The notes under the pieces were generated by a model. The model was not told the DNA's origin, ran no database searches, and saw only the letters and a program-made list of their open reading frames with translations. Positions 3,459-55,996 of a DNA stretch of 64,000 nt are shown here, piece after piece (within the stretch, counting starts at the first letter, position 1; every line of letters starts with the position of its first letter). The position numbers were made by a program, and so were the translations under genes. Source of the stretch: a plasmid. The stretch is from sequence record NZ_CP069398.1. One strand, given 5' to 3'.

Positions 3459-3633
3459 TCCTAACTTAATAAATTATTGATCATTTCATTAACCTTCTAA
3501 AAAAGTTAAATATTTCAACAAGTTATATTGTACAGATAATTCTTATATTTTTCATCTAAATTTGTAATATCATTATAAAAGACTATTACTATAGAGATAT
3601 CTTAGAATCTTTATAGCAACAGTCTTTTTTTCA

Positions 3634-4168
3634 TTAACTTATCTTAGTATTTTTCACGCTTAAATCTCTAATTAAATCTTGAATTTCGTTATTATCATAA
3701 ATTTTCTTTATCATTCCCTCTTTATCTAACAAGAACAAAGTAGGTACTTCTTTTATTTGATAATTAACCGAGAGGTCGTTCGATCGAATTAAATACATAT
3801 TCTTGTGAGTGACTAAGTTTGATAAATTTTCAAGTTCAGGATTTTCATCAGCTATAACAATTACTCTAATTGAAGGTGGAATCTTATTTTTAATTAATAT
3901 AAAGGTTTCTTTACACATATTACATATATCATCCGCAAAGAATAACAAAGTAAATGAATTATTAAAGTCACTTAATTTAACTAAATTCCCTTCATTATCG
4001 GTTTCTTTAAAAAGTGGAGCTTTCTTTCCAGCTGCCAACAAATTAGAATTTGTTTTTTCGATACGTAGATTTTTAAGGAAATGAGTAATAGATTTTGTGA
4101 GTAGAAATATAAATAAAGTTTGGATTATCACAACAACCCAAAGAATTATATTAGAGTATACTAAAGTA
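3634..4168 (-). CDS. TlpA/ResA-like membrane-anchored thiol-disulfide oxidoreductase (CxxC = CNMC), 3' portion. The gene is split by a transposon; its native ATG and first 4 codons lie at 17316..17305 on the other side of the insertion.
   Basis: N-terminal TM helix, then a thioredoxin fold with a CNMC motif. Removing 4169..17299 plus one copy of AAGTA reconstitutes ATG GGA CAT ACT TTA GTA TAC..., which reads MGHTLVYSNIILWVV... A GGTG RBS lies 7 nt upstream. The ORF-track extension into 4169..4305 is transposon IR and left-arm sequence. Confidence 0.7.
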
Positions 4169-4210
4169 GGGGTACGACCGAGGTACTTGTAAAAAAGGGT
4201 CATAGCATGG
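4169..4210 (+). repeat. Left terminal inverted repeat of the Tn3-family transposon
   Basis: GGGGTACGACCGAGGTACTTGTAAAAAAGGGTCATAGCATGG. Matches the reverse complement of 17258..17299. Confidence 0.8.
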
Positions 4211-4582
4211 ATTTTTTTTACATTTACAACCCTTTTTACTCTGTAGGGTAGGGTGGGGTCAGAAAAGTGCGGTTGTTGGTAGGATCCTAATAGGGGTAGT
4301 GTCATTGTCGCTACTCCTATTAAGGAATACTTAAACTAAATCACAAATTAATAAGAAGAAACACATCTTAAAAAATGAGCATTGAACCTTTGCATAATAA
4401 GCAAAAGTCCTTTAAAATTTGTTAGCCGGGTAGAAAATGCTATAATGCTCTTATAAAAAAGAATGGATGCAAAATAGTTTAGGTAAGTTCTAAAACGATT
4501 TCTTTTATTCTTCGACAAACAGGCCAGATTCGTAATTTCTCAAGAGAATAATACAAGTCGCTGTAGGGGTTTTTGTGTTTTT

Positions 4583-5570
4583 TCACTTATGATTACTTTG
4601 ATATACAAGACCTATTTCATCTCTCACTTTATCCAACACTTGTATCGTGGTGTATGAATTTTTATATGAGTTAGTATCAGACTCTGTTTTTCCTCGGTTG
4701 ATTAATTCAATAAATTCTTTCACTTCGTAATACATAGCTGGATGAGATTGGTCGACTGTTAATTGTTCAACCGTGCCGTCAGTGTAGTGAATTTCTACTT
4801 TTTCAGCCGTATGAATCTTATCAATCATGATACTTCCTTTTTCGCCTTGAATTTCGCTTGGTAAATAAGAGTTCGTTATTTTGGAATACATCACAATCGC
4901 ATCTTTATCATCATATTTTAAGATGACGCTACCTTCACCATCCACACCCGAATCAAGCATAATGCCAGTTGCCTTCACTTCTTTTGGTTCACCAAATAAT
5001 GTAATAAGTGGATACAAACAATAGACACCAAGGTCCATTAATGAACCGTTCGCAAACTCTGGATTGAAGGCATTAAGGACAATTCCTTCTTTGTATTTAT
5101 CATAACGAGATGAATACTGACAATAGCTTGCAAAGTATCTACGGATAGGACCAATTTTATGTAAATTATCTTGAATGACCTTGAAGTTTGGAAGTAAGGT
5201 TGATTTCATTGCTTCCATTAATAGGGCGTTATGATCTTTTGCGGCTTGAATCATCCTCGCTACTTCGGTTGCATTAACAGCCAGTGGCTTTTCACATAAC
5301 ACATGTTTGCCATTTTGCAAAAATAAAATAGCTTGTTCTGCGTGATATGAATTGGGAGTAGCCAATGTACACCGCGTCAATTTCTTGACTAACTGCCATT
5401 TCTTTTAGGTTTGTAAATATTTTTGTTACTCCATATTTACTTGCAAATTCTTCTGCTCTACTAATCGTGCGAGAATAAACAGCAGTTAGTTTAAAATCTT
5501 CTACATCATTTGCTGCTTCAAGTAATCTTTCTGTAATCCAATTAGTACCGATTACGCCGAATCGAACCAT
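4583..5570 (-). pseudogene. Gfo/Idh/MocA-family NAD(P)-dependent oxidoreductase, frameshifted
   Basis: The N-terminal Rossmann part (MVRFGVIGTNWITERLL..., 92-aa ORF) and the C-terminal part (265-aa ORF beginning ...TPNSYHAEQAI) lie in different frames and overlap at 5292..5380. One indel near 5350 would fuse them. Confidence 0.6.
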
Positions 5571-5928
5571 TTATTCAACCTCATTCCTTTGTTTTATAAA
5601 ACGAAGAGTTTTGTTTACTACACTTATGAAGCGTTTTTCATCGCCAATAGGATTTTATTTTCCCATAAAAAAACTTATATAGACATGGGGCCTACCAGTG
5701 AAATATTGGTGATAACCCAAATAGGGCTCATACTGTGAGTGATGGCTAAATTCTTGGCTGTGCCCCACCCAATAATGATCTCTGATCCGGCCATAGAAGG
5801 GACTGAATCAGAGGCTATTTTTTCTTTCCTGTATGGACTGTGTTATTTGTAATATGCAGTAAAGACCGCAATTCATAAAAGAAATAAATGCGGTCTTTAC
5901 GATGTTTCCATATTTTTTAAAGTGTACT

Positions 5929-6486
5929 CTATTCGAGATTGGCATGTTTGCCGTACATTTTAGTAGAGTCTAAGCCTTTTTTTTCCATAAAACGCAAGAT
6001 CAATGCATCATAAAATAATAACATCGTTTGCTCAAAAAGTGACCCCATTGGTTGTATGGTCTTATATTCACTTTCAGATTGATCTTTCGGTGATCCAGGC
6101 AATTTAATGATAATATCAGCTAATTTTCCAATCGTGGAGTCAGGGGAAATCGTTACAGCTGCGACCGTCCCACCTAAACTTTTTGCTTTTTCAGCGATTG
6201 AAACCAAGGTTTTCGTTTCACCTGAACCTGAACCGATGATCAACAAATCACCTTTTTCTAAATTTGCTGTTACAGTTTCACCGACTACATAAGCATCGAT
6301 CCCCATGTGCATCATTCTCATCACGAAAGATTTGCCCATAAATCCAGATCTGCCCGCACCTGCAACAAAGATTTTTTTGGATTCCAGAATCTTATTAACC
6401 AACTTCTCTGCTTCTTCGTCAGAGATTAAGTCGACTGTCCGACTTAATTCTTGAACGACTTCAGCTAAATATTGAGTAGTTTTCAT
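5929..6486 (-). CDS. hxlB: 6-phospho-3-hexuloisomerase (PHI, SIS domain)
   Basis: 185 aa. SIS-domain motifs (KIFVAGAGRSGFMGKSF, IIGSGSGET). Sits immediately downstream of hxlA, as in B. subtilis. Confidence 0.85.
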   Translation of the reverse strand: MKTTQYLAEVVQELSRTVDLISDEEAEKLVNKILESKKIFVAGAGRSGFMGKSFVMRMMHMGIDAYVVGETVTANLEKGDLLIIGSGSGETKTLVSIAEKAKSLGGTVAAVTISPDSTIGKLADIIIKLPGSPKDQSESEYKTIQPMGSLFEQTMLLFYDALILRFMEKKGLDSTKMYGKHANLE

Positions 6487-6494
6487 AGTTATAA

Positions 6495-7127
6495 TTAACC
6501 TTGTTTAATTAATTCTTGCATTTTAGCTGCAACTGCTTTTTTATCGTCTTTGCTTGTGATACCGCCACCTACGATGACAAGATCTGGTTGTACTTTAATC
6601 ACATCTGGAAGTGTTTCTAATTTGATTCCGCCTGCAATAGCAGTTTTCGCATTTTTTACAACGCTCTTAATGGTTGCAAGGTCTTCGAAAGAATTTTTTC
6701 CTACAGCTTGAAGGTCATAACCTGTGTGAACGCAGATATAATCTACTCCTAGTTCATCCAGTTCTTTCGCACGACCTTCAATGTCTTTAACTGCGATCAT
6801 ATCAGCAAGGATTTGTTTACCTTGTTTTTTTGCTTCTTCTACAGCACCTTTAATGGACTCGTCTTCAGCTGTACCAAGAATGGTGATGATGTCAGCGCCT
6901 GCTGCAGATGCTTGGCTAACTTCATATCCAGCTGCATCCATGATTTTAAGGTCAGCTAATACAGTTAAGTTAGGGAAGGCAGCTTTCACTTCCTTTACTG
7001 CTTTAAGGCCTTCATTAATCACAACCGGCGTGCCGATTTCTACAACATCTATATGATTTTCTACTTCTTTCACCAATTCAATGGCTCCTGGAATATCTAC
7101 AAGATCTAATGCTAATTGTAATTTCAT
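6495..7127 (-). CDS. hxlA: 3-hexulose-6-phosphate synthase (HPS, OMP-decarboxylase-like fold)
   Basis: 210 aa beginning MKLQLALDLVDIPGAIELVKEV..., characteristic of HPS. Divergent from hxlR. Confidence 0.85.
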   Translation of the reverse strand: MKLQLALDLVDIPGAIELVKEVENHIDVVEIGTPVVINEGLKAVKEVKAAFPNLTVLADLKIMDAAGYEVSQASAAGADIITILGTAEDESIKGAVEEAKKQGKQILADMIAVKDIEGRAKELDELGVDYICVHTGYDLQAVGKNSFEDLATIKSVVKNAKTAIAGGIKLETLPDVIKVQPDLVIVGGGITSKDDKKAVAAKMQELIKQG

Positions 7128-7204
7128 TTATTACTCGCTCCTTATATAATAGTATAATTGTGCCGTATAGCTTTCTTTTGCACAGTGTTATTGTATCCAA
7201 TTGA

Positions 7205-7320
7205 TAGCTATTTACTAACGGTATGATACTCAGTATACTGGGTATGTTACTAAATTAAAAGTATGCACTTTTTTATCATATAGTAACAAAAAGTATACTA
7301 TGGGACATAATAAGGGTTGG
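7205..7320. promoter_or_regulatory. Candidate hxlA promoter/HxlR operator region with repeated AGTATACT-N-GGG motifs
   Basis: The divergent hxlR-hxlA intergenic region contains ...GATACTCAGTATACTGGGTATG... and ...AAAAGTATACTATGGGACA..., direct repeats positioned like the B. subtilis BRH boxes. Confidence 0.3.
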
Positions 7321-7331
7321 AGGTGAAATGA

Positions 7332-7697
7332 ATGCCGAATCTTGGGGAAAAAGTGTTTAATTGTGAAAAAGAATTGACTCTTTCGATTATTGGTGGAAAA
7401 TGGAAAATGTTGGTATTGTGGCATCTAGGAAAAGAAGGAACCAAACGTTTTGGTGAACTAAAGGCCCTCATGCCGGGTATCACTCAAAGAATGCTTGTTA
7501 ATCAATTGCGCGAACTTGAAGACCATTTGATTGTTCATCGTGAAGTCTATCCTGTCGTTCCACCAAAAGTTGAATACTCACTCACTGAGTATGGAAGAAG
7601 TCTGATGCCTATTCTGGAAGCTATGTATGACTGGGGTAAAGATTATATTGAGAATGTATTGGAAAAAGAAACAGAAAACAAATCGTCTATTCAGTAG
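7332..7697 (+). CDS. hxlR: HxlR-family (MarR-like wHTH) transcriptional regulator
   Basis: 121 aa with the HxlR-family signature: [21 protein letters not shown]...[15 protein letters not shown]. Divergent to hxlAB. Confidence 0.85.
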
Positions 7698-7859
7698 AAA
7701 AAAGAGTTTCTCCTAGGGGTTCGAAAAAGTGTAAAAAAGTTCATATACTAACAAACCACGGTTAGCTATCTTAATAAAGATGCTGTCCGTGTTTTTTTAT
7801 ATCTCTACGTATTTAAAAGGTTGAAAAAACACAACATTTAATAAAAGAATCAGTTACTA

Positions 7860-7906
7860 AAAAGCCAAGGGCAGCGAATCTTGTATAATCGCTGTCCTTG
7901 GCTTTT
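7860..7906 (+). terminator. Rho-independent terminator after hxlR
   Basis: 17-bp perfect stem aaagccaagggcagcg / cgctgtccttggcttt, followed by Ts. Confidence 0.6.
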
Positions 7907-8158
7907 CACTCTTGGTATTGGATTCAAGTTTATAGTATTATTTTTAACACTATGTTATACCAATGTATCTATATGTTAATAAAGTGCGTACTTTCAAAAG
8001 TATAACATACGTAATATACTGATTTTGCTCAAGTAATAGCGAGCTTAAAGAATACTACCAAACCTTAAGGGAATACTGCTACAAGCATGGTGAGATGAAG
8101 TGAAACTTCATTTAATAATTTATACATGTTGTTGCTTTTTACGAAAGGAGAGATCCGC

Positions 8159-8323
8159 ATGGAAAGGTTCAAAACTAAGCAGCGAAAAGTTTGTGAAAGA
8201 TGTCTAATCATCACCATAAATAATGAAACCTGTCCAAAATGTGGACATTCTCAATTAAGAGATATCATTATTACCGGACAAGCTGGGAGAAATAAACGAA
8301 ACTTACATCCAAAAGTAGGATAA
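8159..8323 (+). CDS. Small zinc-ribbon protein (CxxC...CxxC), hypothetical
   Basis: 54-aa ORF MERFKTKQRKVCERCL...CPKCGH. A good RBS AAAGGAGAG lies 6 nt upstream of the ATG at 8159. The ORF track shows a longer, unlikely extension. Confidence 0.35.
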   Translation: MERFKTKQRKVCERCLIITINNETCPKCGHSQLRDIIITGQAGRNKRNLHPKVG

Positions 8324-8419
8324 CGCAATAGCGAAAATCCTTGTTGTTTTGTAGGGGAAACGAAGAAAATCAGACATTTTTCTATTTGAAAATGCTTTGA
8401 AAAAGTGGAGGAATGAAAA

Positions 8420-9892
8420 GTGGATTCTATGACGTTTGTCTTATTTGGGGCAACTGGGGATTTAGCTAAGCGAAAAATCTACCCTGCCTTGTTTAATTTA
8501 TATTTGAATCAAAAATTACCAGATTCTTTTTTGATCATTGGTGTAGGAATAGACGAAATGTCTGATGTTGATTTTCAAAACCATGTAACAGACTCGCTAT
8601 ACACTTTTTCTAGACACTTGATAAATGATAAATCCGAAAAACAAGAGTTTGTAAAGGCATTTCGTTATTGCCAGTTAGATTTCACGAATGCTGAAGGGTA
8701 TAAGAAGTTAGTTGAAGTCGTTCAACAAAATGAAAAAGACCAGAGTATTGAAGAGAATCGAATGTTTTATCTTTCTGTTGCTCCTGAATTCTTTGATGTA
8801 ATTGCTTTAAACATAAAGGAGAGTGGCTTAGGTTCGACAAAGGGATGGAAACGATTGATTATCGAAAAACCATTTGGGTATGACTTAAAATCTGCTGAAG
8901 ATTTAAACGAAAAATTAAGCAAAGCTTTTGAAGAAGATGAAATTTTCCGGATTGACCATTATCTCGGAAAACCAATGGTTCAAAACCTTGAAGCCTTGGA
9001 ATTTGCCAATCCTGTGCTGCAATCACTTTGGAACAATCGGTTTATTGCCAATGTGCAAATTACGGCTAGTGAAACGGTTGGTGTAGAAGAGAGGGCTGGT
9101 TATTATGACCAAGCAGGCGCTATTCGTGATATGGTTCAAAATCATATGCTACAGCTGTTGATGATGACAGCCATGCATCTCCCAAAACAGATTAGTGCAA
9201 AAGATATCCGTAATGAGAAAAGAAAAGTTATGGAATCTCTGCGACCATTACAGAAAAATACTGTAGGTATCCACGTCGTTCGTGGCCAATATGGATCAGG
9301 TGAAATAAACGGTACACCAGTAGTCAGATACTTAGAAGAACCTGGCGTTGATGCTTCTTCTAAAAACGATACATTCGTCGCTGCTCGTCTATGGATTGAT
9401 AATTCCTTCTGGGACGGGGTCCCATTCTATATCCGGACAGGAAAAAGAATGACGGAAAAATTAACGCGGATTGTGATTGAATTCAAAAACCCATTAAAGA
9501 ATTTGTATACCAATGAAATCCAAAATGCTGAACCCAATCTATTAGTTATTAATGTAAGTCCTAATGAAGGTGTTTCGTTGCAGTTAAATAGTAAAAACCC
9601 GATAAATGGAAAATTAGAACCTATTGTTGTTGATTTTTCAGCGAGTAAAAAAGACGTGCCCGAAGCATATGAACTCTTAATATTTGATGCTCTGCGTGGG
9701 GACTCTACCTTCTTTGCTCATTGGGACGAAGTTGAATTATCTTGGAAATGGGTACAGCCCGTTTTAGAGGCGTTTGAGGAAAATGCCCTTCCACTCCACC
9801 TATATCAAGCCGGTTCGATGGGGCCACAAGCTGCTTCGCAATTATTGGAGGAGGATGGTTTTAAATGGTGGGAAACTAGGGGGGGAGTTTAA
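8420..9892 (+). CDS. zwf: Glucose-6-phosphate 1-dehydrogenase
   Basis: 490 aa. Dinucleotide-binding motif FGATGDLAKRKIYPAL. Conserved G6PD segments (RIDHYLGK, EKPFG). Confidence 0.9.
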   Translation: MDSMTFVLFGATGDLAKRKIYPALFNLYLNQKLPDSFLIIGVGIDEMSDVDFQNHVTDSLYTFSRHLINDKSEKQEFVKAFRYCQLDFTNAEGYKKLVEVVQQNEKDQSIEENRMFYLSVAPEFFDVIALNIKESGLGSTKGWKRLIIEKPFGYDLKSAEDLNEKLSKAFEEDEIFRIDHYLGKPMVQNLEALEFANPVLQSLWNNRFIANVQITASETVGVEERAGYYDQAGAIRDMVQNHMLQLLMMTAMHLPKQISAKDIRNEKRKVMESLRPLQKNTVGIHVVRGQYGSGEINGTPVVRYLEEPGVDASSKNDTFVAARLWIDNSFWDGVPFYIRTGKRMTEKLTRIVIEFKNPLKNLYTNEIQNAEPNLLVINVSPNEGVSLQLNSKNPINGKLEPIVVDFSASKKDVPEAYELLIFDALRGDSTFFAHWDEVELSWKWVQPVLEAFEENALPLHLYQAGSMGPQAASQLLEEDGFKWWETRGGV

Positions 9893-10090
9893 TCCGCACC
9901 TCCCTGGAAGGCTATTGGTATGAAGAGAGCAAACCGAGGTTGGATTTGACAGATAATTGTTACGCGATTTACCCAAGGAACTTAAAGTATTTGTTGAATC
10001 CTTATGGTTCCATAAGGAGACCATGAAGAACAACAAATGGGTAGCATAATAATACAGGCTATTTTTTGTAATTTAAAGGAGGAAACTCAA

Positions 10091-10984
10091 GTGAAAGTAG
10101 GATTAATTGGATTAGGGAAAATGGGTATGAACTTAGGAAAAAACTTAATTGACAATAAACACCGTGTAATGGCGTTTGATCTAAATACAAATACTATTGA
10201 AGAAATTAAAAAATACGGAGTTGAAGGAGCATCCAGTTTACAAGATCTTGTTCAATCATTAGAAAAGCCACGAGTTGTTTGGATAATGGTCCCACACTCC
10301 GTCGTTGATTCAGTTATTAGTGAAATCACACCATTTCTAAGTGAAGGAGATATCGTCATTGAAGCTGGTAATTCGCATTATAAGGAATCCATTCGTCGTT
10401 ACGAACAGTTGAAGAAAGTTGGAGTGAGCTTTATGGATGCCGGTACTTCTGGGGGGATGGAAGGTGCTCGCTATGGTGCTTGTTATATGATTGGTGGAGA
10501 TCCTGAAGCATGGAGCATTGTCGAGCCGATTTTTAGAGATACAGCTGTAGATAATGGGTATTTATATGCTGGGAAATCTGGTAGTGGCCACTTCTTAAAA
10601 ATGGTCCACAATGGAATAGAATACGGAATGATGGCCGCCATTGGTGAAGGATTCGAAGTCCTGGAAAAAAGCGATTTCGATTTTGACTATGAAAAAGTGG
10701 CACGGGTGTGGAATAACGGTTCTGTCATCCGCTCATGGCTCATGGAATTGACAGAACGCGCATTTTCTAAAGATGCAAAATTAGATGAAATTAAGGGCAT
10801 TATGCATTCTTCTGGGGAAGGGAAATGGACAGTTGAAACCGCTTTGGATCTTCAAACAGCTACCCCTGTTATCGCTATGTCTTTACTAATGCGTTACCGT
10901 TCATTAGACAATGATACATTTACAGGTAAAGTGGTAGCTTCCCTTCGTAATGAATTTGGCGGACATGCTGTGGAAAAATCATAA
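10091..10984 (+). CDS. 6-phosphogluconate dehydrogenase, short decarboxylating form (YqeC/GndA-like)
   Basis: GTG start with RBS AAAGGAGG 8 nt upstream. Rossmann motif VGLIGLGKMGMNLGKNL. Length about 297 aa, typical of short-form 6PGDH-like proteins. The ORF-track start at 10037 is probably too long. Confidence 0.7.
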   Translation: MKVGLIGLGKMGMNLGKNLIDNKHRVMAFDLNTNTIEEIKKYGVEGASSLQDLVQSLEKPRVVWIMVPHSVVDSVISEITPFLSEGDIVIEAGNSHYKESIRRYEQLKKVGVSFMDAGTSGGMEGARYGACYMIGGDPEAWSIVEPIFRDTAVDNGYLYAGKSGSGHFLKMVHNGIEYGMMAAIGEGFEVLEKSDFDFDYEKVARVWNNGSVIRSWLMELTERAFSKDAKLDEIKGIMHSSGEGKWTVETALDLQTATPVIAMSLLMRYRSLDNDTFTGKVVASLRNEFGGHAVEKS

Positions 10985-11099
10985 AGTCATCTGCTGTATA
11001 TGTCTTTCGTTAAAATGAGCCGGAAATTCATTGGATTTTTAGTTTGGTATATCCCAAAAATTGGTAGATTTACTTAAGTCGTTGATAGTGCTAACTATG

Positions 11100-11300
11100 T
11101 TGATTGAAGCGGAAGGAGCGAGACTCCTCGAAAATGCATTCACATTTTCTCGTGCGGTGCCTATTCACGGATGATGATTCAACGTCCTGCGGGAAAAACA
11201 TGACAAGGGAGACCCCGCAGCCGCACAGCGCCGAGGAGGCTCCCGGCTCGCCCGCGGAAAGCGAGCACCTGGAGCCAACAGACAAGTTTAACAGAGCCAA
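11100..11300. repeat. GC-rich structured intergenic repeat (B. cereus-group bcr-like element)
   Basis: About 200 bp with strikingly higher GC than its surroundings. Several internal palindromes (cgaaaatg...cattttcg; gctcgc...gcgagc). ORFs on both strands (91 aa and 71 aa) overlap it and are probably spurious. Confidence 0.4.
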
Positions 11301-11315
11301 AAAAATAAAACAATA

Positions 11316-11822
11316 TTGAGGTGTGACATCATGAACGTATTGGATGCAAAAATCATTAACACACAATATGGTTTAGAAACCTATTTAGACATGGTGAAGA
11401 ATATCGAAGTAAAAGAACTCCATTCTCCATCAGATAATGAGCCCTTTTATGAAATAGTATTAGGGATAGAGTATTTTCTTCTAAGGGACGGAAAATATTA
11501 TGATAGTGAAAGGAATTATTTTCGGATTCAAATGAGCGAAGATTTTAATTCAATCACGTTAAGAGAGACAGATACCGAAAGTTTATTTGCTGTCAAAACC
11601 GAACACGAGAGAGACTCAACTAAGCTACTGGTTGGAGAATGGCTTATAAAAACCAATGCTTTCAAGCAAGTAATAAGTGAACTGATCCAACAAAAGAAAA
11701 TGGAGAATGTTCAAAATGAGGGAGACACTCGAAAAGTATTAGGAACGATAAGATTCTTGGAAATATTACTTGAAATCAAAACAGAAGACATACTAAGTGC
11801 CGATGTAGAGAGGGACCATTGA
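11316..11822 (+). CDS. Hypothetical protein (168 aa)
   Basis: Clean ORF with no recognisable motifs. Lies between the 6PGDH-like gene and pgi. Confidence 0.4.
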   Translation: MRCDIMNVLDAKIINTQYGLETYLDMVKNIEVKELHSPSDNEPFYEIVLGIEYFLLRDGKYYDSERNYFRIQMSEDFNSITLRETDTESLFAVKTEHERDSTKLLVGEWLIKTNAFKQVISELIQQKKMENVQNEGDTRKVLGTIRFLEILLEIKTEDILSADVERDH

Positions 11823-12062
11823 GTTTTCTTAATACTAACTGTCTTTTAATGTACGCTATTGATAATTACACGGTCCCACTAAGGATTTTTCAAAATTGAA
11901 AAGGGGGAGTTTAAATGTGTTTTTAAAAACTTCCCTTATATACTGTAGAAAAGGAGAATGCACTAACATGAAACGTTTTACTATGCCGAGAGATCTTTTT
12001 TACGGAGAAGGATCTCCGATTGAAGCAGCTAAGCTAAATTTGATTGAAAGGGGAAGTAATGT

Positions 12063-13400
12063 ATGACTATTTCGTTTGATTACTCCAATGCATTAGCATT
12101 TATGAAAAAGAGTGAAGTAGATAATCTAAGTGAATTTGTAAAAGTGGCTCATAAAATGCTACATGAAAAAACAGGCCCCGGCTCTGATTATCTTGGTTGG
12201 GTCGATTTGCCACTAAACTATGATAAGAGTGAATTTGAAAGAATTAAACAAGCTGCTGAAAGAATCAAGAAACATTCAGACGCAATGGTTGTAATTGGTA
12301 TTGGTGGTTCGTATTTGGGTGCAAGATCAGCTATAGAAGCTTTGTCCCATAGCTTTCATAACCAAATGAACGATAAGACAAAAGTGTATTTTGCCGGTCA
12401 CAATATCAGTTCTACTTATATATCTCATTTATTTGAACTATTAGAGGGGAAAGATATCTCTGTTAACGTCATTTCCAAATCAGGAACAACGACAGAGCCA
12501 GCCCTTGCTTTCCGTATTTTTCGTGACTATATGGAGAAAAAATACGGAAAAGAAGAGGCGAGAAAACGTATTTTTGCCACTACTGATCAGGAAAAAGGCG
12601 TATTAAAAAAGCTCGCGGACAAAGAAGGATATGAAACGTTTGTTATTCCGGATGATGTAGGTGGAAGGTATTCTGTGCTAACAGCAGTTGGTCTCTTACC
12701 AATTGCCGTAGCAGGACTTGATATTGATCATATGATGGAAGGGGCAGCAGCAGCAGCCCGTAAATACAACAATCCTGATTTATTGACAAATGAGAGCTAT
12801 CAGTATGCTGCGGTCCGAAATGTACTCTACAATAAGGGAAAAGCAATTGAAGTGCTTGTTAACTATGAGCCCTCCCTTCACTACGTATCGGAATGGTGGA
12901 AGCAGCTGTTTGGGGAAAGTGAAGGAAAAGATCAAAAGGGGCTATTCCCTGCTTCCGTTGATTTTTCAACGGATTTGCATTCCATGGGGCAATATGTACA
13001 AGAAGGTCGACGAAACCTTTTAGAAACGGTTTTACAGATTAAGAAACCTCGAATTGAAGTGACTATTCAGGAGGATCCAGAAAATATTGATGGATTAAAC
13101 TTCCTGGCAGGTAAGACGATGGATGAAGTCAACAAAAGTGCATTTCAGGGTACCCTTATGGCCCATATAGATGGAGAAGTACCTAATCTCGTGATTGAAC
13201 TGGATGAAATGAATGAATACACTTACGGTGAGATGGTTTACTTTTTTGAGAAGGCATGTGGGATTAGTGGCCATCTATTAGGAGTTAACCCATTTGACCA
13301 GCCTGGAGTCGAAGCATACAAGAAGAATATGTTTGCTTTACTTGACAAACCTGGTTTTGAAGCAGAAAAAGCTACTCTCATGGAGCGTTTATCAAAATAA
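12063..13400 (+). CDS. pgi: Glucose-6-phosphate isomerase
   Basis: 445 aa. The N-terminus aligns with B. subtilis Pgi (...[11 protein letters not shown]...LGWVDLP). Has the SIS/PGI motif [11 protein letters not shown]. Confidence 0.9.
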
Positions 13401-13429
13401 TTATATCTGATTGGTTTTGTATTAATAAA

Positions 13430-13590
13430 AAGATTGTTACCAAAAACCATATTTTTTGTAACAATATTTATGAGAAATACTGATGCTTGATTTTACTAAT
13501 TTTATAGGTTACCAAAAATAATTACCAAAAGTTTTACCAAATACTTTTACAAAAATGATGTCTCTTGTACAATTAGATTATTAAATTGTG
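13430..13590. promoter_or_regulatory. Putative res (resolution) site and tnpR promoter region
   Basis: Dyad TTGTTACcaaaaaccatattttttGTAACAA is a candidate crossover subsite I. It is followed by repeated TTACCAAAA/TTTTACAAAA motifs (subsites II/III) immediately upstream of the resolvase gene. Confidence 0.5.
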
Positions 13591-13604
13591 CAGGAGGCTT
13601 CTTT

Positions 13605-14171
13605 ATGATAATCGGTTATGCTCGAGTTTCGACAGTTGACCAAAATTTAGACCGACAAATTATATTACTTTCTGAGTACGGCTGTGAAAAAATGGTTCAA
13701 GAGAAATTTACTGGGACTACAAAGGATAGAGATGGACTTAACTCATTGCTAGATGTAATAAGGAAAGGTGATACCGTTGTAGTAGAAAGTATTTCACGCT
13801 TAGGGAGAAAAACACTTGATATTCTTTCTATTATTCAGCAATTCGAGGATACTGGTGTAAAGTTCGTTTCTATTAAGGAGAACATGGATACAAGAACATC
13901 AACGGGAAAAGCCATGTTTCAAATGATGTGTGTCATCGCAGAGTTAGAAAGAAATTTAATTGTAGAAAGAGTTAAAGAAGGGTTAGAAGCGAGTAAAAGA
14001 AGAGGAAAAAAACTAGGAAGGCCTAAAGTGGATCAAGGGAAAATTGAAATAGCCTTGAGGATGTATGACAGTAAAGAATACTCGGTAAAAGAAATTGTAG
14101 AAGGTACAGGACTTTCACAGGGATCATTATATCGAGCGATTAATAAAAGAAAACTAGTAGAAGCAAATTAA
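13605..14171 (+). CDS. tnpR: Serine recombinase, Tn3-family resolvase
   Basis: 188 aa. N-terminal catalytic motif IGYARVSTVDQNLDRQ. C-terminal HTH. Confidence 0.9.
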   Translation: MIIGYARVSTVDQNLDRQIILLSEYGCEKMVQEKFTGTTKDRDGLNSLLDVIRKGDTVVVESISRLGRKTLDILSIIQQFEDTGVKFVSIKENMDTRTSTGKAMFQMMCVIAELERNLIVERVKEGLEASKRRGKKLGRPKVDQGKIEIALRMYDSKEYSVKEIVEGTGLSQGSLYRAINKRKLVEAN

Positions 14172-14242
14172 TAATCTCTTATATTTTTAGGGAATTATGT
14201 GACGGACTAGGGCAGCTACTCTGTCACCACCCCCAACTTAAT

Positions 14243-17209
14243 TTGAATGGAGTTGGTAATTTGGCATCTATAGAACGTACGGCTTATCCAAGATTTAAAA
14301 AACGTCCTACTTCAAAAGAACTTCGTGATGTTTACTCCCCTACACCTGAAGAAAACCAATTTGCGCATAAAGTTGCTAGAGGACCTGTTTCAGTTCTAAG
14401 TCTATTAGTTATGTTAAAGTCTTTCCAACGACTTGGTTACTTTCCTCGACCGAAAGATATTCCTGTAGAGATCATGATTCATATTCGGACCTGTTTGAAT
14501 CTCTCTGCTAGTGTTGAACCGAATTACAATAGTAAATCAATTTACCGACATCAAAAAGCAATTAGAGATTACCTCAATGTACGTCCTTATGGAAAAGAAG
14601 CCTTACATATTGCAACTACTTCAATTTATAAGGCTACACAGGTAATGGACAATCCAGCCGATCTTATCAACGTATCCATTGAAATATTAATAAAAGAAAG
14701 GTGTGAATTACCTGCTTTTAGTACATTAGATCGATTGGCTCGTCGTATAAGAACATTAGTGAATCACCAGTTATTTAATTCAGTATTTTCAAAATTGACT
14801 CCTGAAATTGAGCGAAAATTAGATCAATTACTAGTTACTAAAAATGATAATCGGACTTCTGAATATAACTTATTAAAAGAAATTCCAAAAAGCGCAACAC
14901 TTTCGCATATGAAAGAAATACAAAATAGGTTACTTCTGTTAACTGATTTTATAGAAGAAATTGATAGCTTACTAGAGGATATTCCAAATTTAAAAATTAA
15001 ACACTTCGCTTTAGAAGCAAAAGCGCTTGATGCATCAGAATTAAAAGACTTTAATTTAGCTAAAAGATATATGCTGCTACTTTGTATGATTTATCGCTCA
15101 AAAATTTCAGCTATAGATAGTTTGGTAGAGATGTTTCTCAAAAGAGTCAGAACAATACATAACAAAGGCAAAGAGGAGCTAGAACTTCTTCGAGAAAAAC
15201 ATAGATCAAAAACTGAAAATCTTATATCTGTTTTGGCGGAAGTCTTAAATGCCACAAGTATAAATGAGAACGATACCTTGACTGGTCAGAAAATAAGGGA
15301 GTTATTAGGGAGAAGAGGTGGTATCGACGCATTAAAAGAAGATTGTGAATCAATTTCATCATATAATGGCAATAACTACCTTCCTCTTTTATGGAAGTTC
15401 TATAAAAGCCACAGGAAAACTCTTTTTAGATTGATTAGTATGATTGAAATTAATTCAACCACACAGGATCAATCACTTTTAGAAGCTTTACAATTTTTAC
15501 GTGATAATGAGAACCGAAAAATTGAAAATCTACAAATAGATTTGGATCTTTCATTTGCTAGTGAACAGTGGAAAAAAACGATTTATGTACCTAAAGAAAA
15601 TAACTTAATCCATCGTAAACACCTTGAAATCTGTATTTTTTCCTATCTTGCAAGCGATTTAAAAACGGGAGACCTTTGTGTAAAAGGATCAGAGAATTTT
15701 GCTGATTACCGTGAACAGCTCCTTTCTTGGGATGAGTGTAAACCTATGGTAGATGAATACTGTAAGGAACTTGGCTTTTCTTCAAATTCAGGGGATTTTG
15801 TTCAACAATTAAAGCTCTGGCTAGGAGATACTGCACAAAAAGTAGATTTAAACTACCCTGATAACGGCCAGGTAATCATTAATGAAAATGGAGAACCAAC
15901 GTTGAGAAAAATAATGAGAAAAGAACAACCTCAGACAAGTAAGGCGTTAGAGGTAGTTATTTCTCAACGGTTACCTGAACGAAATGTCTTAGATATTCTT
16001 TGTAATGTAGAACATTGGACAAATTGGACACGGCATTTTGGACCATTATCTGGTTCAGATCCTAAGCTTGAAAATGCAATGGAACGTTATATCATTACTT
16101 CTTTTGGATACGGATGTAATTTAGGACCAACACAGACTTCTAAGCACATGAAAAAAGCAGTAACCCCACACATGATTTCATTTGTAAATCGGCGACATAT
16201 TAATGCATCTAAAATAGACGAAGCTATTCGTAATATTTTAAATCAATACAATCAATTTAGTTTGCCTAGACTATGGGGTGATGGAAAAACGGCTGCTGCA
16301 GATGGAACAAAATTTGATCTCTACGAAGAAAACTTAATCTCTGAATACCACATTCGATACGGAGGTTATGGGGGGATTGCATATCATCATGTTTCAGATA
16401 CTTATATTGCACTCTTTAGTCACTTCATTCCATGTGGAGTTTGGGAAGCAGTTTATATTATTGATGGTTTGCTGAAAAATAAATCAGACATTCAGCCCGA
16501 TACGTTACATGCTGATACGCAAGGTCAATCAACGCCTGTTTTTGCACTTGCACATTTATTGGGGATTAATTTAATGCCTCGTATTCGAAATTGGAAGGAT
16601 TTAAAATTTTACAGGGCTGATAAGGACACAAAATATCACCACATTGATCAGTTGTTTAGTGATACCGTTGACTGGGACCTAATTGAAACACACTGGCAAG
16701 ATCTGCTCCAAGTGGTTCTTTCTATAAAAGCTGGTAAAATATTACCCTCTACACTACTTAGAAAACTAAGTAACTATAGTAGAAAAAACCGATTATATCA
16801 AGCTTTTAGGGAATTAGGAAGGATTGTAAGAACTGTATTTTTGCTTAAATATATTTCTGATATAAAACTAAGAGAGCAAATTGGTGCTAGTACAAACAAA
16901 GTCGAAGCATATAACGGCTTTTCCAAATGGCTATTTTTTGGTGGCGATGGGATCATTTCAGAAAATGATCCAGAAGAACAAGAAAAGCGAATTAAATATA
17001 ATGATTTAGTTGCCAACGCAGTAATATTCCAAAATGTATGTGATATAACACTTATTTTGTGGGAACTTTCTAAAGAAGGCTATGTATTTTCAAAAGAAGA
17101 TATTGTCATGCTTAGCCCTTATCTGACTAGGCATATAAAACGTTTCGGAGACTATATGATCGATTTAGAAAATATTCCACAACCAATCGAGGGAGATATT
17201 CCTGTATAG
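14243..17209 (+). CDS. tnpA: Tn3-family DDE transposase
   Basis: 988 aa, the characteristic length. The gene ends 49 bp from the 42-bp terminal IR. Confidence 0.85.
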   Translation: MNGVGNLASIERTAYPRFKKRPTSKELRDVYSPTPEENQFAHKVARGPVSVLSLLVMLKSFQRLGYFPRPKDIPVEIMIHIRTCLNLSASVEPNYNSKSIYRHQKAIRDYLNVRPYGKEALHIATTSIYKATQVMDNPADLINVSIEILIKERCELPAFSTLDRLARRIRTLVNHQLFNSVFSKLTPEIERKLDQLLVTKNDNRTSEYNLLKEIPKSATLSHMKEIQNRLLLLTDFIEEIDSLLEDIPNLKIKHFALEAKALDASELKDFNLAKRYMLLLCMIYRSKISAIDSLVEMFLKRVRTIHNKGKEELELLREKHRSKTENLISVLAEVLNATSINENDTLTGQKIRELLGRRGGIDALKEDCESISSYNGNNYLPLLWKFYKSHRKTLFRLISMIEINSTTQDQSLLEALQFLRDNENRKIENLQIDLDLSFASEQWKKTIYVPKENNLIHRKHLEICIFSYLASDLKTGDLCVKGSENFADYREQLLSWDECKPMVDEYCKELGFSSNSGDFVQQLKLWLGDTAQKVDLNYPDNGQVIINENGEPTLRKIMRKEQPQTSKALEVVISQRLPERNVLDILCNVEHWTNWTRHFGPLSGSDPKLENAMERYIITSFGYGCNLGPTQTSKHMKKAVTPHMISFVNRRHINASKIDEAIRNILNQYNQFSLPRLWGDGKTAAADGTKFDLYEENLISEYHIRYGGYGGIAYHHVSDTYIALFSHFIPCGVWEAVYIIDGLLKNKSDIQPDTLHADTQGQSTPVFALAHLLGINLMPRIRNWKDLKFYRADKDTKYHHIDQLFSDTVDWDLIETHWQDLLQVVLSIKAGKILPSTLLRKLSNYSRKNRLYQAFRELGRIVRTVFLLKYISDIKLREQIGASTNKVEAYNGFSKWLFFGGDGIISENDPEEQEKRIKYNDLVANAVIFQNVCDITLILWELSKEGYVFSKEDIVMLSPYLTRHIKRFGDYMIDLENIPQPIEGDIPV

Positions 17210-17257
17210 TATATAAGAAAGTAAAGAGCAAGAAAGGGTTATAAATGGTAAACAATA

Positions 17258-17299
17258 CCATACTATGACCCTTTTTTACATGTATCTCGGTCGTACCCC
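17258..17299 (-). repeat. Right terminal inverted repeat of the Tn3-family transposon
   Basis: Reverse complement GGGGTACGACCGAGATACATGTAAAAAAGGGTCATAGTATGG, 38/42 identical to IRL. The adjacent 17300..17304 AAGTA repeats the target-site duplication at 4164..4168. Confidence 0.8.
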
Positions 17300-17326
17300 A
17301 AGTATGTCCCATAGCAAACACCTTTT

Positions 17327-17914
17327 CTAATTGTTATTTTTTAAAGACGAGATAATCTTATTAAAGTTTTCTATTATATGAATTAGTTCTCTAATTAGCA
17401 ATAATAAAATAATTATACAAATGGAAATGATTAAATATTGCCATGATTTATATCCAAATGCATAAACAGGGTTATTCGTATTTATTAAAGTATCAATAGA
17501 GAACAATGAATTTTTATTAAATGAAATTAAAAGTGCGGTTATAATGAGAAGAATATTTCTCACAACCAGTTTCCACGATAATTGATGATTCCCTAAAACT
17601 CCTCCACATCCACATGATATTTCTGTACGTCCCCGTAATAAATTTATAGAAATAGCAGTAATATAGACAAATAACAACGAAACTGCGCCTATGATAGCTA
17701 CTATTTCTAAAAGTCCGATTATTAGAAGTATTCCAACGGCTAATTCTGCTATAAAGTCCAATCTTCCAGCTATCTTAGAAAAATTAGAAGGTATTACTTT
17801 ATAATCGCTAATTATTCCAATATGTTTATCAAAATTGTTATATTTTGAAATAGCACTACTTAGAAAGATAAACGCTAAAAATACCCTTAAAAATAATTCT
17901 AATGCTGAGTTCAT
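17327..17914 (-). CDS. MauE/DoxX-like integral membrane protein with a CGCGG cysteine cluster
   Basis: 195 aa, 4-5 TM helices, motif ISCGCGGVLG. MauE-family proteins support disulfide formation in secreted cysteine-rich proteins. The stop is 10 nt from the native ATG of the split thioredoxin gene, so the two were translationally coupled. Confidence 0.55.
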   Translation of the reverse strand: MNSALELFLRVFLAFIFLSSAISKYNNFDKHIGIISDYKVIPSNFSKIAGRLDFIAELAVGILLIIGLLEIVAIIGAVSLLFVYITAISINLLRGRTEISCGCGGVLGNHQLSWKLVVRNILLIITALLISFNKNSLFSIDTLINTNNPVYAFGYKSWQYLIISICIIILLLLIRELIHIIENFNKIISSLKNNN

Positions 17915-19725
17915 ACAAGCACCTCTTGAACTTCTTTCTTATCTTGATACCATTGAGCCTGACTATTATACATTTCTGCGTATAGGGCACCTAATTTTAT
18001 TAAATCATCATGAGTTCCTTCCTCAACGATCTGTCCATTTTTTAAAACTAGAATACGATCCGCAAGTTTAGCAGAGGCCATTCTGTGAGAAATAAATAAT
18101 GTCGTTTTATCTTTAGAAAGTTCATTAAACTTGTTATATATATTTAATTCCGTGATAGGGTCTAAAGCTGAAGATGGTTCATCTAATATTAATACCTCAG
18201 CATCCCTAAATAATGCTCTAGATATAGCGATTTTTTGCCATTGTCCACCAGATAAATCCACTCCACTCCCCAAAAAATTCCCTAACAAAGTATCGTATCC
18301 CTTATTAAGCTTATTGATAAAATCATGCGAATCTGCCAATTGAGACGTAGCTAGTATCTTTTCTTTGTTATTTATTTCACCAGTAGAACTTATTGCTATA
18401 TTCTCAAAGGCTTTAAAGTAATATTTCATAAAATCTTGAAAGATGATGGAGAACTTGTTTCTTATGTCATTAGGGTTTATATAATTTGAATCAATATTAT
18501 CATATAAAATTGACCCACTGGTTGGTTTGTACAAACCTGCTAAACACTTAACTAAAGTAGTTTTCCCGGAACCATTCCTACCAACAATGGCGATTTTCTC
18601 CCCTGGTTTAATTGTTAAAGAAATATCTTTCAGAATCTCATTTTCACTATTTAAATATCTGAAAGAAATGTTCTTTAATTCTATACCCTTCTGCAATTTT
18701 TCATGTAAGAGCTGTTGCACTTTTCGATTGTCATTTAATTCATCTTCAGTGTTATAATCTACAAATTTATAATAATCATTAATATATAATGATTTCTCAT
18801 AAATTTGCGCCAAATCAACTGCAATTCCATTAATTGAACTTTGAGTAGTATGGACTGCTTCACCTATTACAACAAACTCCCCAATTTGAATTTTGGTTTT
18901 TTTTATGAGCCATATTATAATGAATGCTGCCCCTCCGTAAAACAAAGCCGATGCTCCATCTAAAGCAATTTTAGATTGATGTTCTTTTTTGGCTAACAAT
19001 AAATTTGCTTTATTATTCTTAATAAATTTTTTAGACCACTTATGTAATAAAAAATCTCTTAAATTAAAAGAACGGATTTCTTTAGAAGCTTCCCGAACTT
19101 TGATCAATTGTGAAATATAATCAGCCTCACGAGCTTCAGGTGTAGTATTGTATAGCAACCAGAAGCGTTTATCTCCAAATTTAGAGTTAATAATAAACAT
19201 AGGTATACATACAACTAAACTAAAGACTACTAAAGACCAATGGATGCTAAATAAGAACCCTAGCATAGAGATTAAAGTAATAAAAGTCCTAAAAATTTGT
19301 ATTACTGACTTAAAAGGAGCCAAGAAAGCATTCCCACTACCATCTAATCTCGATAAATGATTGTAAAAATTATTATCATCAAAATACTCTAAAGGAATAG
19401 AGGAAGCCCTTTTTAATATTTCAGATTCTAAATAATAATTTAAATGCAATTGGAATTTTTTATCTATATAGTCATTAATATTAGTTATAAATGTACTAGC
19501 TAAAGAAATGAATAACTGTAAAATTAACAATGTAATTGGTAAAGAAAAATCATAATCAGAGTGATTGATGCTGTAAGCTAAGGAGTTAACTAGTTCTTTA
19601 GTTATGAATAGTACGAGAACAGGCACAACCCCTAATAAAATATTAGAAAAAACAGAAATAAAAATCCAAGATTTTCCCATGGACCAAATTAATTTAAAAG
19701 CTTTTGTCATGTTAATTATGTTCAA
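17911..19725 (-). CDS. ABC exporter, fused TMD-NBD (type I exporter, 604 aa), no C39 peptidase domain
   Basis: Walker A GRNGSGKTT, signature LSGGQWQK, Walker B ILILDEPSSALD. A six-TM N-terminal half. Confidence 0.85.
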   Translation of the reverse strand: MNIINMTKAFKLIWSMGKSWIFISVFSNILLGVVPVLVLFITKELVNSLAYSINHSDYDFSLPITLLILQLFISLASTFITNINDYIDKKFQLHLNYYLESEILKRASSIPLEYFDDNNFYNHLSRLDGSGNAFLAPFKSVIQIFRTFITLISMLGFLFSIHWSLVVFSLVVCIPMFIINSKFGDKRFWLLYNTTPEAREADYISQLIKVREASKEIRSFNLRDFLLHKWSKKFIKNNKANLLLAKKEHQSKIALDGASALFYGGAAFIIIWLIKKTKIQIGEFVVIGEAVHTTQSSINGIAVDLAQIYEKSLYINDYYKFVDYNTEDELNDNRKVQQLLHEKLQKGIELKNISFRYLNSENEILKDISLTIKPGEKIAIVGRNGSGKTTLVKCLAGLYKPTSGSILYDNIDSNYINPNDIRNKFSIIFQDFMKYYFKAFENIAISSTGEINNKEKILATSQLADSHDFINKLNKGYDTLLGNFLGSGVDLSGGQWQKIAISRALFRDAEVLILDEPSSALDPITELNIYNKFNELSKDKTTLFISHRMASAKLADRILVLKNGQIVEEGTHDDLIKLGALYAEMYNSQAQWYQDKKEVQEVLV

Positions 19726-19754
19726 TTTAAATCACCTTAGTCTTTACATTTTGT

Positions 19755-20270
19755 TCATTTAGTAAGAAATGAATGTAGCTTTCCTGCTAATGAGGTTACC
19801 ATCTCAATTTTTCCGTCATGATTAATAAAAATAAACGTTGGATATTGAGATATATCTGCTCTGTCCAAAAATTCTTTTGAGTACGGTAATGTTTTCACTG
19901 AGTCTTTATATTGATAAATAAACTCTTTAATTTTATTTTTTTCCTCATCTCTATTTCCAGATGCCACAGACATGACATAGTATTCAGCTTTATATTTATT
20001 TTTATTTTTTAGTAATTGTTCAAGTGCTACATGACAACTTGAACAACTAGTTAAAGAAACCTGTATGATTAACCTTTTGGAAGGAATATTCCAGTTGTGT
20101 GGCATTATTGTTCGAATATCTTCTCCCATCAAAGAGTGTTCTAGTTGTTCTACATTAGCTTCTATATTGGGTAAATAGCTCAATTCTATATTTAATGCTC
20201 GATACTGACAAAAATTAAATATTAATAGTATAAAAAAGCAGACACATATAATGCTTAAAATAATGTTCAT
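19755..20270 (-). CDS. TlpA-like thiol-disulfide oxidoreductase (thioredoxin fold, CxxC = CSSC), membrane-anchored
   Basis: 171 aa with an N-terminal TM helix and an active-site-like CSSC in a thioredoxin-like context. Confidence 0.6.
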   Translation of the reverse strand: MNIILSIICVCFFILLIFNFCQYRALNIELSYLPNIEANVEQLEHSLMGEDIRTIMPHNWNIPSKRLIIQVSLTSCSSCHVALEQLLKNKNKYKAEYYVMSVASGNRDEEKNKIKEFIYQYKDSVKTLPYSKEFLDRADISQYPTFIFINHDGKIEMVTSLAGKLHSFLTK

Positions 20271-55988: not shown

Positions 55989-55996
55989 AGTCTTTA

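Follow-up and report, generated by a model that had tools for sequence, protein, structure and literature searches.

The plasmid record NZ_CP069398.1 contains, within the 64,000-nucleotide stretch analyzed here (the window), a segment in which genes for transposition stand beside genes for formaldehyde and sugar-phosphate metabolism. This raises the question of whether the metabolic genes are themselves the cargo of a transposon and, if so, which function they serve together. Positions 4169-17299 (13,131 bp) were identified as an intact, recently active Tn3-family transposon with a Tn501/Tn21-like layout: left inverted repeat (IRL), cargo, res, tnpR, tnpA and right inverted repeat (IRR). Its identity and its boundaries are firmly established by the sequence comparisons below. 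The cargo probably constitutes a formaldehyde-dissimilation module that would respond to the regulator HxlR and whose lactonase activity would be supplied from outside or replaced by spontaneous hydrolysis. The element is delimited by the following features:

4164-4168, no strand assigned: left copy AAGTA of the target-site duplication (TSD); position 4168 joined to 17305 gives back a redoxin reading frame start, MGHT/LVYSN
4169-4210, plus strand: IRL, GGGGTACGACCGAGGTACTTGTAAAAAAGGGTCATAGCATGG
17258-17299, minus strand: IRR, its reverse complement aligned with IRL
17300-17304, no strand assigned: right copy AAGTA of the TSD

IRL and IRR each open with the GGGG-initiated sequence GGGGTACGACC. 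After reverse complementation of IRR, 39 of the 42 positions are identical, the mismatches being at repeat positions 15, 19 and 38; the initial annotation had recognized the repeats correctly but counted 38/42. Weaker likeness extends beyond the 42 nt to approximately 67 nt (87%). A 37-nt core of the repeat occurs in two places only in the 64-kb window (0.00 expected by chance, no match in shuffled sequences). AAGTA lies directly outside both repeats, and the perfect 5-bp TSD that had been annotated was thus confirmed. The G+C content of the element (0.34-0.41) exceeds that of its flanks (0.27-0.32), which fits a foreign insert.

The insertion site could be reconstructed. In silico deletion of 4169-17304 fuses MGHT to LVYSN... 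and restores the open reading frame (ORF) of a TlpA-like redoxin, which the element splits at codon 4/5; the long ORF at 3634-4305 of the raw window is a chimera running into IRL. The redoxin gene is accompanied by a MauE/DoxX gene and an ABC transporter of the exporter type (cluster 3634-4168 plus 17305-20270), and the remainder of the window resembles Priestia plasmid backbones. The Priestia megaterium plasmid NZ_CP071467.1 shows the same order of polysaccharide-synthesis, redoxin, MauE and ABC genes, uninterrupted, and aligns gap-free over the junction (78% identity). At the corresponding site this plasmid has no cargo gene. As the initial annotation had supposed, the transposon therefore lies around the cargo rather than beside it.

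Near-identical copies of the unit were found in other genomes. The 13,131 bp are 100% identical on plasmid pPmC-129-4 of P. megaterium CDC 2008724129 (TSD TCTTT), and the unit is 99.9% identical on two plasmids from Paenibacillus urinalis blood isolates, between other flanks (TSD TAACT). A scan for the inverted repeats, covering one genome per species, returned 21 loci. Ends or whole copies with at least 99.5% identity were present in Robertmurraya kyonggiensis, Robertmurraya sp. 2P01SA (on the chromosome), Bacillus sp. B1-b2, Paenibacillus provencensis, Paenibacillus sp. Marseille-Q4541, Bacillus yapensis, Niallia hominis and Bacillus massiliglaciei. The copies are 99.5-100% identical, differ by a handful of single-nucleotide polymorphisms (SNPs) and indels, and are full-length wherever the entire element could be read. 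More distant versions, 86-94% identical, are carried by Oceanobacillus bengalensis, Metabacillus herbersteinensis, Cytobacillus firmus, Bacillus sp. DJP31 and a Bacillus metagenome-assembled genome. Look-ups of exact proteins revealed more sites, on both chromosomes and plasmids; 335 indexed blocks of the assembly collection contain exact HxlB, and exact TnpA is found on 27 contigs in its 982-aa form and on 88 in its 988-aa form.

For nine insertions both ends were in hand, each with its own 5-mer (AAGTA, TCTTT, TAACT, TAAGG, GAATT, TTTAA, GATGT, AGCAT and AATAT), and at least nine additional ends show other distinct flanks. These matched duplications and distinct flanks demonstrate that the 13.1-kb unit transposes as a whole. 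It has spread recently, at about 99.5-100% identity, over several genera of Bacillales on plasmids and chromosomes; the expectation that the same repeat-bounded unit would recur at other loci and in other strains was borne out in Priestia, Paenibacillus, Robertmurraya, Niallia, Bacillus and others. Could these copies instead derive from a fossil transposon, spread solely through plasmid transfer and homologous recombination? Some of them have a worn appearance: Bacillus cereus pJ7_2 carries only res-tnpR-tnpA-IRR, the end flanks of the Robertmurraya and B. yapensis copies are swapped, 15 bp of tnpA are missing from one P. urinalis copy, and tnpA is fragmented in H. krulwichiae. Such an origin is nevertheless extremely improbable in view of nine sites with perfect 5-bp duplications of their own on unrelated plasmids and chromosomes of different genera, a divergence between copies of no more than 0.5%, and the intact tnpA, tnpR and inverted repeats of the window copy, which are identical to the most widely distributed alleles. 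The joining of cargo and transposition genes is older than this recent spread, since in O. bengalensis a diverged (94%) tnpA-tnpR-res is linked directly to pgi-gnd-zwf. Accession numbers suggest that hxlR and hxlA follow there.

Several copies showed further changes. R. kyonggiensis and B. yapensis have flanks identical to each other, but those at the two ends are swapped (ATATT versus AATAT), and the matching flank is found on an extra 586-bp IRR-proximal fragment, which points to a plasmid common to the two species and to a secondary rearrangement involving two copies. In the left part of the R. kyonggiensis copy (4169-11142), 15 of the 29 SNPs that separate it from the window copy fall in region 7717-8388, which surrounds the 54-aa ORF listed below. 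On one P. urinalis plasmid zwf is extended by the loss of 1 bp close to its stop (window 9879), and the tnpA deletion on the other is in frame (16702-16716). In the copies in JBNAFG010000003.1 and JALXUQ010000003.1 (approximately 3500-9900), a second Tn3-family element separates pgi from a truncated tnpR. It has a resolvase of its own as well as a regulator of the HxlR family and an NmrA-like gene, and represents a transposon nested at or close to res. The Priestia flexa chromosome CP040367.1 carries a copy with the IRL and left-arm genes of the transposon and an IS1595-family insertion near IRL; the same strain harbors a diverged (82%) version of the module on plasmid NZ_CP040366.1 (3988-13443).

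The transposition module occupies the right arm:

13434-13464, no strand assigned: res site I, dyad TTGTTACCAAAAACC-AT-ATTTTTTGTAACAA, with the crossover dinucleotide AT at 13449-13450
13509-13575, plus strand: rest of res, with TTAC[C]AAA repeated four times, at 13509, 13522, 13534 and 13547
13605-14171, plus strand: tnpR, serine resolvase of 188 aa with recombinase-family matches
14243-17209, plus strand: tnpA, Tn3-family transposase, 988 aa from a TTG codon or 982 aa from the annotated start at 14261

TnpA contains the domains PF01526 (DDE_Tnp_Tn3, 502 bits) and PF13700 (DUF4158, 110 bits) and is homologous to the Tn4430 transposase 7qd4 over residues 64-967 (E = 1.2e-74). Its closest relatives found are unnamed transposases of Bacillus thuringiensis, B. 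badius and P. flexa plasmids (73-74% identity). TnpR shows homology to the resolvases of gamma-delta (E = 2e-24) and Tn3 (E = 3.7e-24). These matches, together with the site I dyad, confirmed the annotated right arm. Beyond site I the putative subsites were assigned by analogy with Tn501-type res (PMC7157771). The repeats overlap a promoter-like sequence, TTTACA-16-TACAAT, upstream of tnpR; promoter and terminator consensus scans of the element gave no enrichment over shuffles, and this site alone was positionally meaningful.

Two independent natural recombinants break precisely at the central AT of site I. The plasmid of the kimchi strain Bacillus subtilis SRCM102749 has kept the cargo side, 98% identical from 5219 to ...AAACCAT, after which unrelated DNA follows. 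Conversely, P. provencensis and Paenibacillus sp. Marseille-Q4541 retain the transposition side, ATATTTTTTGTAACAA-tnpR-tnpA-IRR, with unrelated DNA to the left of res beside a histidine-kinase gene, and the flanks of their IRL and IRR still share a TSD. The central AT of site I is accordingly a natural recombination point, at which, to judge from these alignments, the cargo and the transposition genes have come apart and been joined anew. Breakage at this position matches the behavior described for the Tn3 family (PMC7157771), and the two recombinants provide a clean case of site I module exchange in a Gram-positive Tn3-family element. On B. cereus pJ7_2, site I, tnpR, tnpA and IRR are likewise present and the DNA to the left differs; no IRL partner was found within 12 kb, so that this record holds half an element only. 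The SRCM102749 copy was also considered as a transposon-free ancestor of the cargo. This was rejected: the copy ends precisely at the site I crossover and hence derives from a copy of the transposon.

What, then, does the element carry? Five pathway enzymes were scored against curated NCBIfam equivalog cut-offs:

5929-6486, minus strand: hxlB, 6-phospho-3-hexuloisomerase (TIGR03127, 261 bits, cut-off 160)
6495-7127, minus strand: hxlA, encoding 3-hexulose-6-phosphate synthase (TIGR03128, 289 bits, cut-off 200)
8420-9892, plus strand: zwf, glucose-6-phosphate dehydrogenase (TIGR00871, 581 bits, cut-off 400.6)
10091-10984, plus strand: gnd, short-form decarboxylating 6-phosphogluconate dehydrogenase of 297 aa (TIGR00872, 478.5 bits, cut-off 297.2)
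12063-13400, plus strand: pgi, glucose-6-phosphate isomerase (NF010697, 734 bits, cut-off 443)

All five exceed the cut-offs, and their functions are firmly assigned at the family level. For Gnd, the best solved relatives are the short decarboxylating 6-phosphogluconate dehydrogenases 4e21 and 8ihe, and the segment GHFxKMVHNGIEYG is kept; with the TIGR00872 score this supports the earlier reading of the protein as a decarboxylating enzyme. Every gene named in the initial annotation was recovered. However, the order given there, pgi-zwf-6-phosphogluconate dehydrogenase, has to be corrected to zwf-gnd-(163-aa ORF)-pgi, and two ORFs, of 163 and 54 aa, had been omitted.

In the ribulose monophosphate (RuMP) pathway's cyclic dissimilatory variant, formaldehyde and ribulose-5-phosphate yield hexulose-6-phosphate, which passes via fructose-6-phosphate, glucose-6-phosphate, 6-phosphogluconolactone and 6-phosphogluconate back to ribulose-5-phosphate with release of CO2 (PMC8879981). 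The five predicted enzymes would close this cycle as it is defined there, in line with what had been proposed for the locus. Hexulose-6-phosphate synthase and hexuloisomerase (Hps and Phi) serve the assimilatory route as well (PMC8879981). Hence hxlAB might feed formaldehyde, for instance from methanol or methoxylated aromatics, into fructose-6-phosphate for growth, a step towards facultative methylotrophy in which the extra pgi, zwf and gnd simply top up ribulose-5-phosphate and NAD(P)H. Zn- and Fe-type alcohol dehydrogenases bracket the P. flexa plasmid module, a context that hints at alcohol-derived formaldehyde there, and a Zn-type alcohol dehydrogenase lies near the SRCM102749 plasmid copy. 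The transposon itself, however, carries neither an alcohol or methanol dehydrogenase nor the rearrangement enzymes pfk, fba, tkt, tal, rpe and rpi, and the genes that it does carry are exactly those of the oxidative loop, in which the fixed carbon is lost as CO2. An assimilatory role is for these reasons unlikely, and dissimilation is the preferred reading of the cargo.

The same set of enzymes recurs outside this transposon. A sensitive DNA search for the module gave matches on 190 plasmids, with the five enzymes adjacent to each other. Three arrangements were distinguished. Priestia, Peribacillus and Cytobacillus plasmids have the Bacillaceae order (hxlB and hxlA divergent from hxlR, zwf, short gnd and pgi), and Exiguobacterium has hxlB and hxlA divergent from zwf, pgi and long gndA. 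In Staphylococcus (79 matching plasmid records), a helix-turn-helix gene, hxlB and hxlA are divergent from pgi, long gndA and zwf, between copies of IS257. Gnd is non-orthologous among them: the short form is found in Bacillaceae, the long NADP form in Staphylococcus and Exiguobacterium. The differing gene orders and non-orthologous Gnd indicate repeated assembly of the same cycle, and the recurrence of the set in three orders argues for selection on the five enzymes as a unit.

Control of the cargo was approached through the region between hxlA and zwf:

7229-7283, minus strand: first conserved box, lying upstream of hxlA, a candidate operator for HxlR (core AGTGCATACTT at 7259-7269)
7332-7697, plus strand: hxlR, formaldehyde-responsive MarR/DUF24 activator (E = 7.6e-56 to B. 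subtilis HxlR 7bzd, residues 3-109)
7864-7910, plus strand: stem-loop GCCAAGGGCAGCGA...TCGCTGTCCTTGGC followed by a T run
7969-8023, plus strand: second conserved box, upstream of zwf, core AGTGCGTACTT at 7983-7993

HxlR residues F9-N-C11-E-K13-E-L15 match the sensor peptide FNCEKEL exactly and place Cys11 and Lys13 in helix alpha-1; this peptide forms a formaldehyde-induced Cys-CH2-Lys bridge (PMC7835342). The 54-bp box is present in the same orientation relative to hxlA and to zwf. Local alignment of the two intergenic regions scored 49, compared with a shuffle mean of 21 (standard deviation 2.3, maximum 34). The box core, TATRTG...AAAGTGCRTACTT, is invariant before hxlA and zwf in the transposon and in the P. 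flexa, Peribacillus and Exiguobacterium plasmids. AGTGCRTACTT occurs exactly twice in the window (0.06 expected), and every complete module of the Bacillaceae type or from Exiguobacterium that was examined likewise has two copies; a search of the staphylococcal plasmid did not recover the conserved box. A shorter motif guess, AGTATRCW, was dropped, as it was not significantly enriched (14 found, 9.4 expected). We conjecture that the conserved box is an HxlR operator that would tie the zwf operon to the formaldehyde signal. HxlR control of zwf gains support from the duplication of the box upstream of both hxlA and zwf, which yields a directly testable prediction on the design of the HxlR regulon. 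The stem-loop, read from the sequence and not listed by a simple terminator scan, is likely the hxlR terminator, separating hxlR from the zwf operon.

These data also bear on whether zwf-gnd-pgi might be a generic NAD(P)H module against oxidative or electrophile stress, linked to hxlAB by chance and selected mainly by an agent other than formaldehyde. NADPH is classically supplied by Zwf and Gnd, and distant relatives of the 163-aa ORF stand beside zwf-gnd-tal-pgi together with glyoxalase, flavin-reductase and DoxX genes. A chance linkage is hard to reconcile with the presence of hxlA and hxlB beside pgi, zwf and gnd in all three plasmid arrangements, with a formaldehyde-specific sensor bearing the Cys11/Lys13 motif aboard, and with the same conserved box before hxlA and zwf. 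We therefore regard a generic redox module as very unlikely.

The element inserted into codon 4/5 of the redoxin gene on a Priestia-type plasmid, duplicating AAGTA. From gene content and comparative genomics we infer that the cargo runs as a formaldehyde-oxidizing cycle, that both operons are controlled by HxlR, and that the module confers tolerance. In this model, formaldehyde would cross-link Cys11 and Lys13 of HxlR, and the cross-linked protein would activate the divergent hxlAB and, via the second copy of the box, probably also zwf-gnd-(orf163)-pgi. HxlA would then condense formaldehyde with ribulose-5-phosphate, HxlB would form fructose-6-phosphate, Pgi glucose-6-phosphate and Zwf 6-phosphogluconolactone. 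The lactone would be converted to 6-phosphogluconate, spontaneously or by a host lactonase, and short Gnd would regenerate ribulose-5-phosphate and release CO2. Overall, formaldehyde would be converted to CO2 with a yield of 2 NAD(P)H while the acceptor is re-formed in situ, and the recipient host might gain higher formaldehyde tolerance or energy from formaldehyde-yielding substrates.

Several observations weigh against this model, some of them concerning the remaining ORFs of the cargo:

4583-5570, minus strand: Gfo/Idh/MocA-family oxidoreductase, frameshifted (PF01408, PF22725 and PF02894 on two overlapping ORFs)
8159-8323, plus strand: 54-aa ORF with two CxxC pairs and a good ribosome-binding site, located after the conserved box and before zwf; annotated as hypothetical in the identical plasmid copy
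11331-11822, plus strand: 163-aa ORF of a Bacillaceae-restricted family

No lactonase-family match was obtained among the annotated ORFs of the element that were scanned (all but the 54-aa ORF); the lactonase is missing, as had been annotated, and the step must be spontaneous or host-supplied. The upstream box is separated from zwf by 397 bp, within which a small ORF is found. The NCBIfam model's name is the sole basis for the cofactor preference of Gnd. Among the cargo genes, no role could be assigned to the 163-aa ORF or to the Gfo/Idh/MocA enzyme, and the inactivation of the latter in this copy implies that not every cargo gene is under selection. Finally, the isolation sources of the carriers are mixed (clinical, soil and deep-sea sediment) and indicate no single selective agent.

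The frameshift in the oxidoreductase, which had been annotated and is confirmed by the Pfam matches on overlapping ORFs, results from one extra base at 5362/5363. An intact gene of 328 aa is present in P. provencensis and other copies; the extra base is common to the Priestia, P. urinalis, R. kyonggiensis and B. yapensis copies and absent from many others. It is thus confined to one sublineage, and the oxidoreductase is ancestral cargo that was lost there. The best relatives of this enzyme in the PDB are uncharacterized.

The 163-aa ORF lies within a segment of its own:

10985-12046, plus strand: 1,062-bp segment with a GC-rich stretch at approximately 11110-11290 and the 163-aa ORF inside

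The operon versions of O. bengalensis and of the P. flexa plasmid lack this segment, and the 163-aa gene is therefore a later addition. The segment opens with the GC-rich stretch of approximately 180 bp (GGGAGACCCCGCAGCCGCACAGCGCCGAGGAGGCTC...), which we take to resemble a repeated intergenic element of Bacillaceae. The stretch is single-copy in the window and its folding is no better than that of shuffles (z = -1.0). The exact 163-aa protein was found on 194 contigs. Its structure is predicted with confidence (predicted local distance difference test, pLDDT, 92.8), and the predicted model matched no solved fold, lactonases included. The ORF was considered as the missing lactonase and this was rejected as unsupported, there being no family, PDB-sequence or fold match. 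Family members with 48-55% identity neighbor rpiA-zwf-gnd-tal-pgi-hxlR in B. sinesaloumensis and, in Ectobacillus, rpiB and phosphotransferase system genes; a pentose-phosphate neighborhood recurs in distant members of the family. Rfam scans of the element gave sub-threshold chance matches only and no riboswitch or known RNA.

With transposons of the Tn501/Tn21 type the element shares the order IRL-passengers-res-tnpR-tnpA-IRR, a serine resolvase, a site I crossover with central AT, GGGG-initiated repeats of approximately 38-42 bp and a 5-bp TSD (PMC7157771). It differs from them in its Gram-positive hosts and in its one-carbon and central-carbon passengers, in place of mer or antibiotic-resistance genes; in addition, the subsites past site I look like four direct TTACCAAA repeats. 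The repeat ends in ...TCATAG here, compared with the usual ...TAAG (PMC5736529). Tn4430 of B. thuringiensis, for which the transposase structure was solved, has a homologous TnpA and likewise belongs to Bacillales. Tn4430, however, relies on the tyrosine recombinase TnpI, paired with an irs site, and is free of passengers (PMC7157771), whereas a serine resolvase, res and approximately 9 kb of cargo are found here.

Among known cargo modules, the IS257-flanked staphylococcal cluster (pShoR14-1, SAP016A and a 57-kb Staphylococcus chromogenes plasmid) shares the five activities, the divergence from hxlAB, a plasmid location, the lack of a lactonase and bracketing by mobile elements. It differs in having approximately 68% nucleotide identity over parts only, the order pgi-gndA-zwf and a long NADP-type GndA, and its vehicle is an IS6/IS257 composite without target duplications (PMC9782665) instead of a Tn3-family unit. 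The regulator of the B. subtilis hxlR-hxlAB locus is orthologous, has the Cys11/Lys13 sensor peptide and is likewise encoded divergently from hxlAB. That locus is chromosomal and unlinked to zwf, gnd and pgi, ribulose-5-phosphate being regenerated by housekeeping enzymes; in the transposon the regeneration loop is attached and the operator apparently shared. In Methylobacillus flagellatus and Bacillus methanolicus the reaction sequence is the same (Hps, Phi, Pgi, Zwf, (Pgl), Gnd; PMC8879981), but the genes are dispersed or chromosomal, whereas here they are packaged in a transposon in non-methylotrophic heterotrophs. Finally, frmAB of Aeromonas salmonicida pAsaXII is also a mobile, repeat-bounded plasmid cargo for formaldehyde resistance, and pAsaXII measurably raised the minimum inhibitory concentration of formaldehyde (PMC5736529). 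That element encodes a glutathione-dependent linear pathway, lacks a transposase of its own and resides in a Gram-negative host.

Passengers of the Tn3 family already include resistance, virulence and organic-catabolite genes (PMC7157771), so that metabolic cargo is not new in principle. A cluster of hxlAB with pgi, gnd and zwf on a plasmid was reported as functionally puzzling in Staphylococcus hominis (PMC9782665), and two "functionally interconnected" operons without lactonase were described in S. chromogenes (PMC12724294). The existence of the cargo module on plasmids has thus been remarked on only recently. Of the transposon itself we could find no description: a full-text literature search returned neither a Tn3-family element with such cargo nor a paper combining Tn3, hexulose-6-phosphate, glucose-6-phosphate dehydrogenase and plasmid, although an entry in the TnCentral or ISfinder registries may exist. 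The initial claim that this cargo is undescribed for the family stands within that limit.

The dissimilatory cycle is usually treated as a property of methylotrophs; here it is found with its sensor on one transposable unit that recently moved among genera, and the carriers include human-derived isolates. If the proposed function holds, a non-antibiotic fitness or biocide-tolerance trait would be spreading along the route of resistance genes, and the cassette would be a natural, already optimized formaldehyde sink of interest for synthetic methylotrophy. It would also account for the puzzling plasmid "housekeeping" copies of zwf, pgi and gnd seen in staphylococci. More tentatively, and with rather more doubt than confidence, the element may be viewed as a horizontally spreading determinant of tolerance to formaldehyde and aldehyde biocides in spore-forming Bacillales, in which a single HxlR sensor would drive the fixation genes and, via a duplicated operator, those that regenerate the acceptor. 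The near-identity across genera, blood and clinical isolates included, would then reflect a recent selective sweep, and the 163-aa orphan might be an accessory of the oxidative pentose-phosphate branch.

Outside the element, the plasmid carries several clustered group II introns or intron fragments. Four group II intron RNA matches above the Rfam gathering scores lie in window positions 50219-58405 (50219-50392, 52696-52793, 53889-53966 and 58328-58405), and long ORFs of 545 aa (50673-52310) and 561 aa (56616-58301) are found near them.

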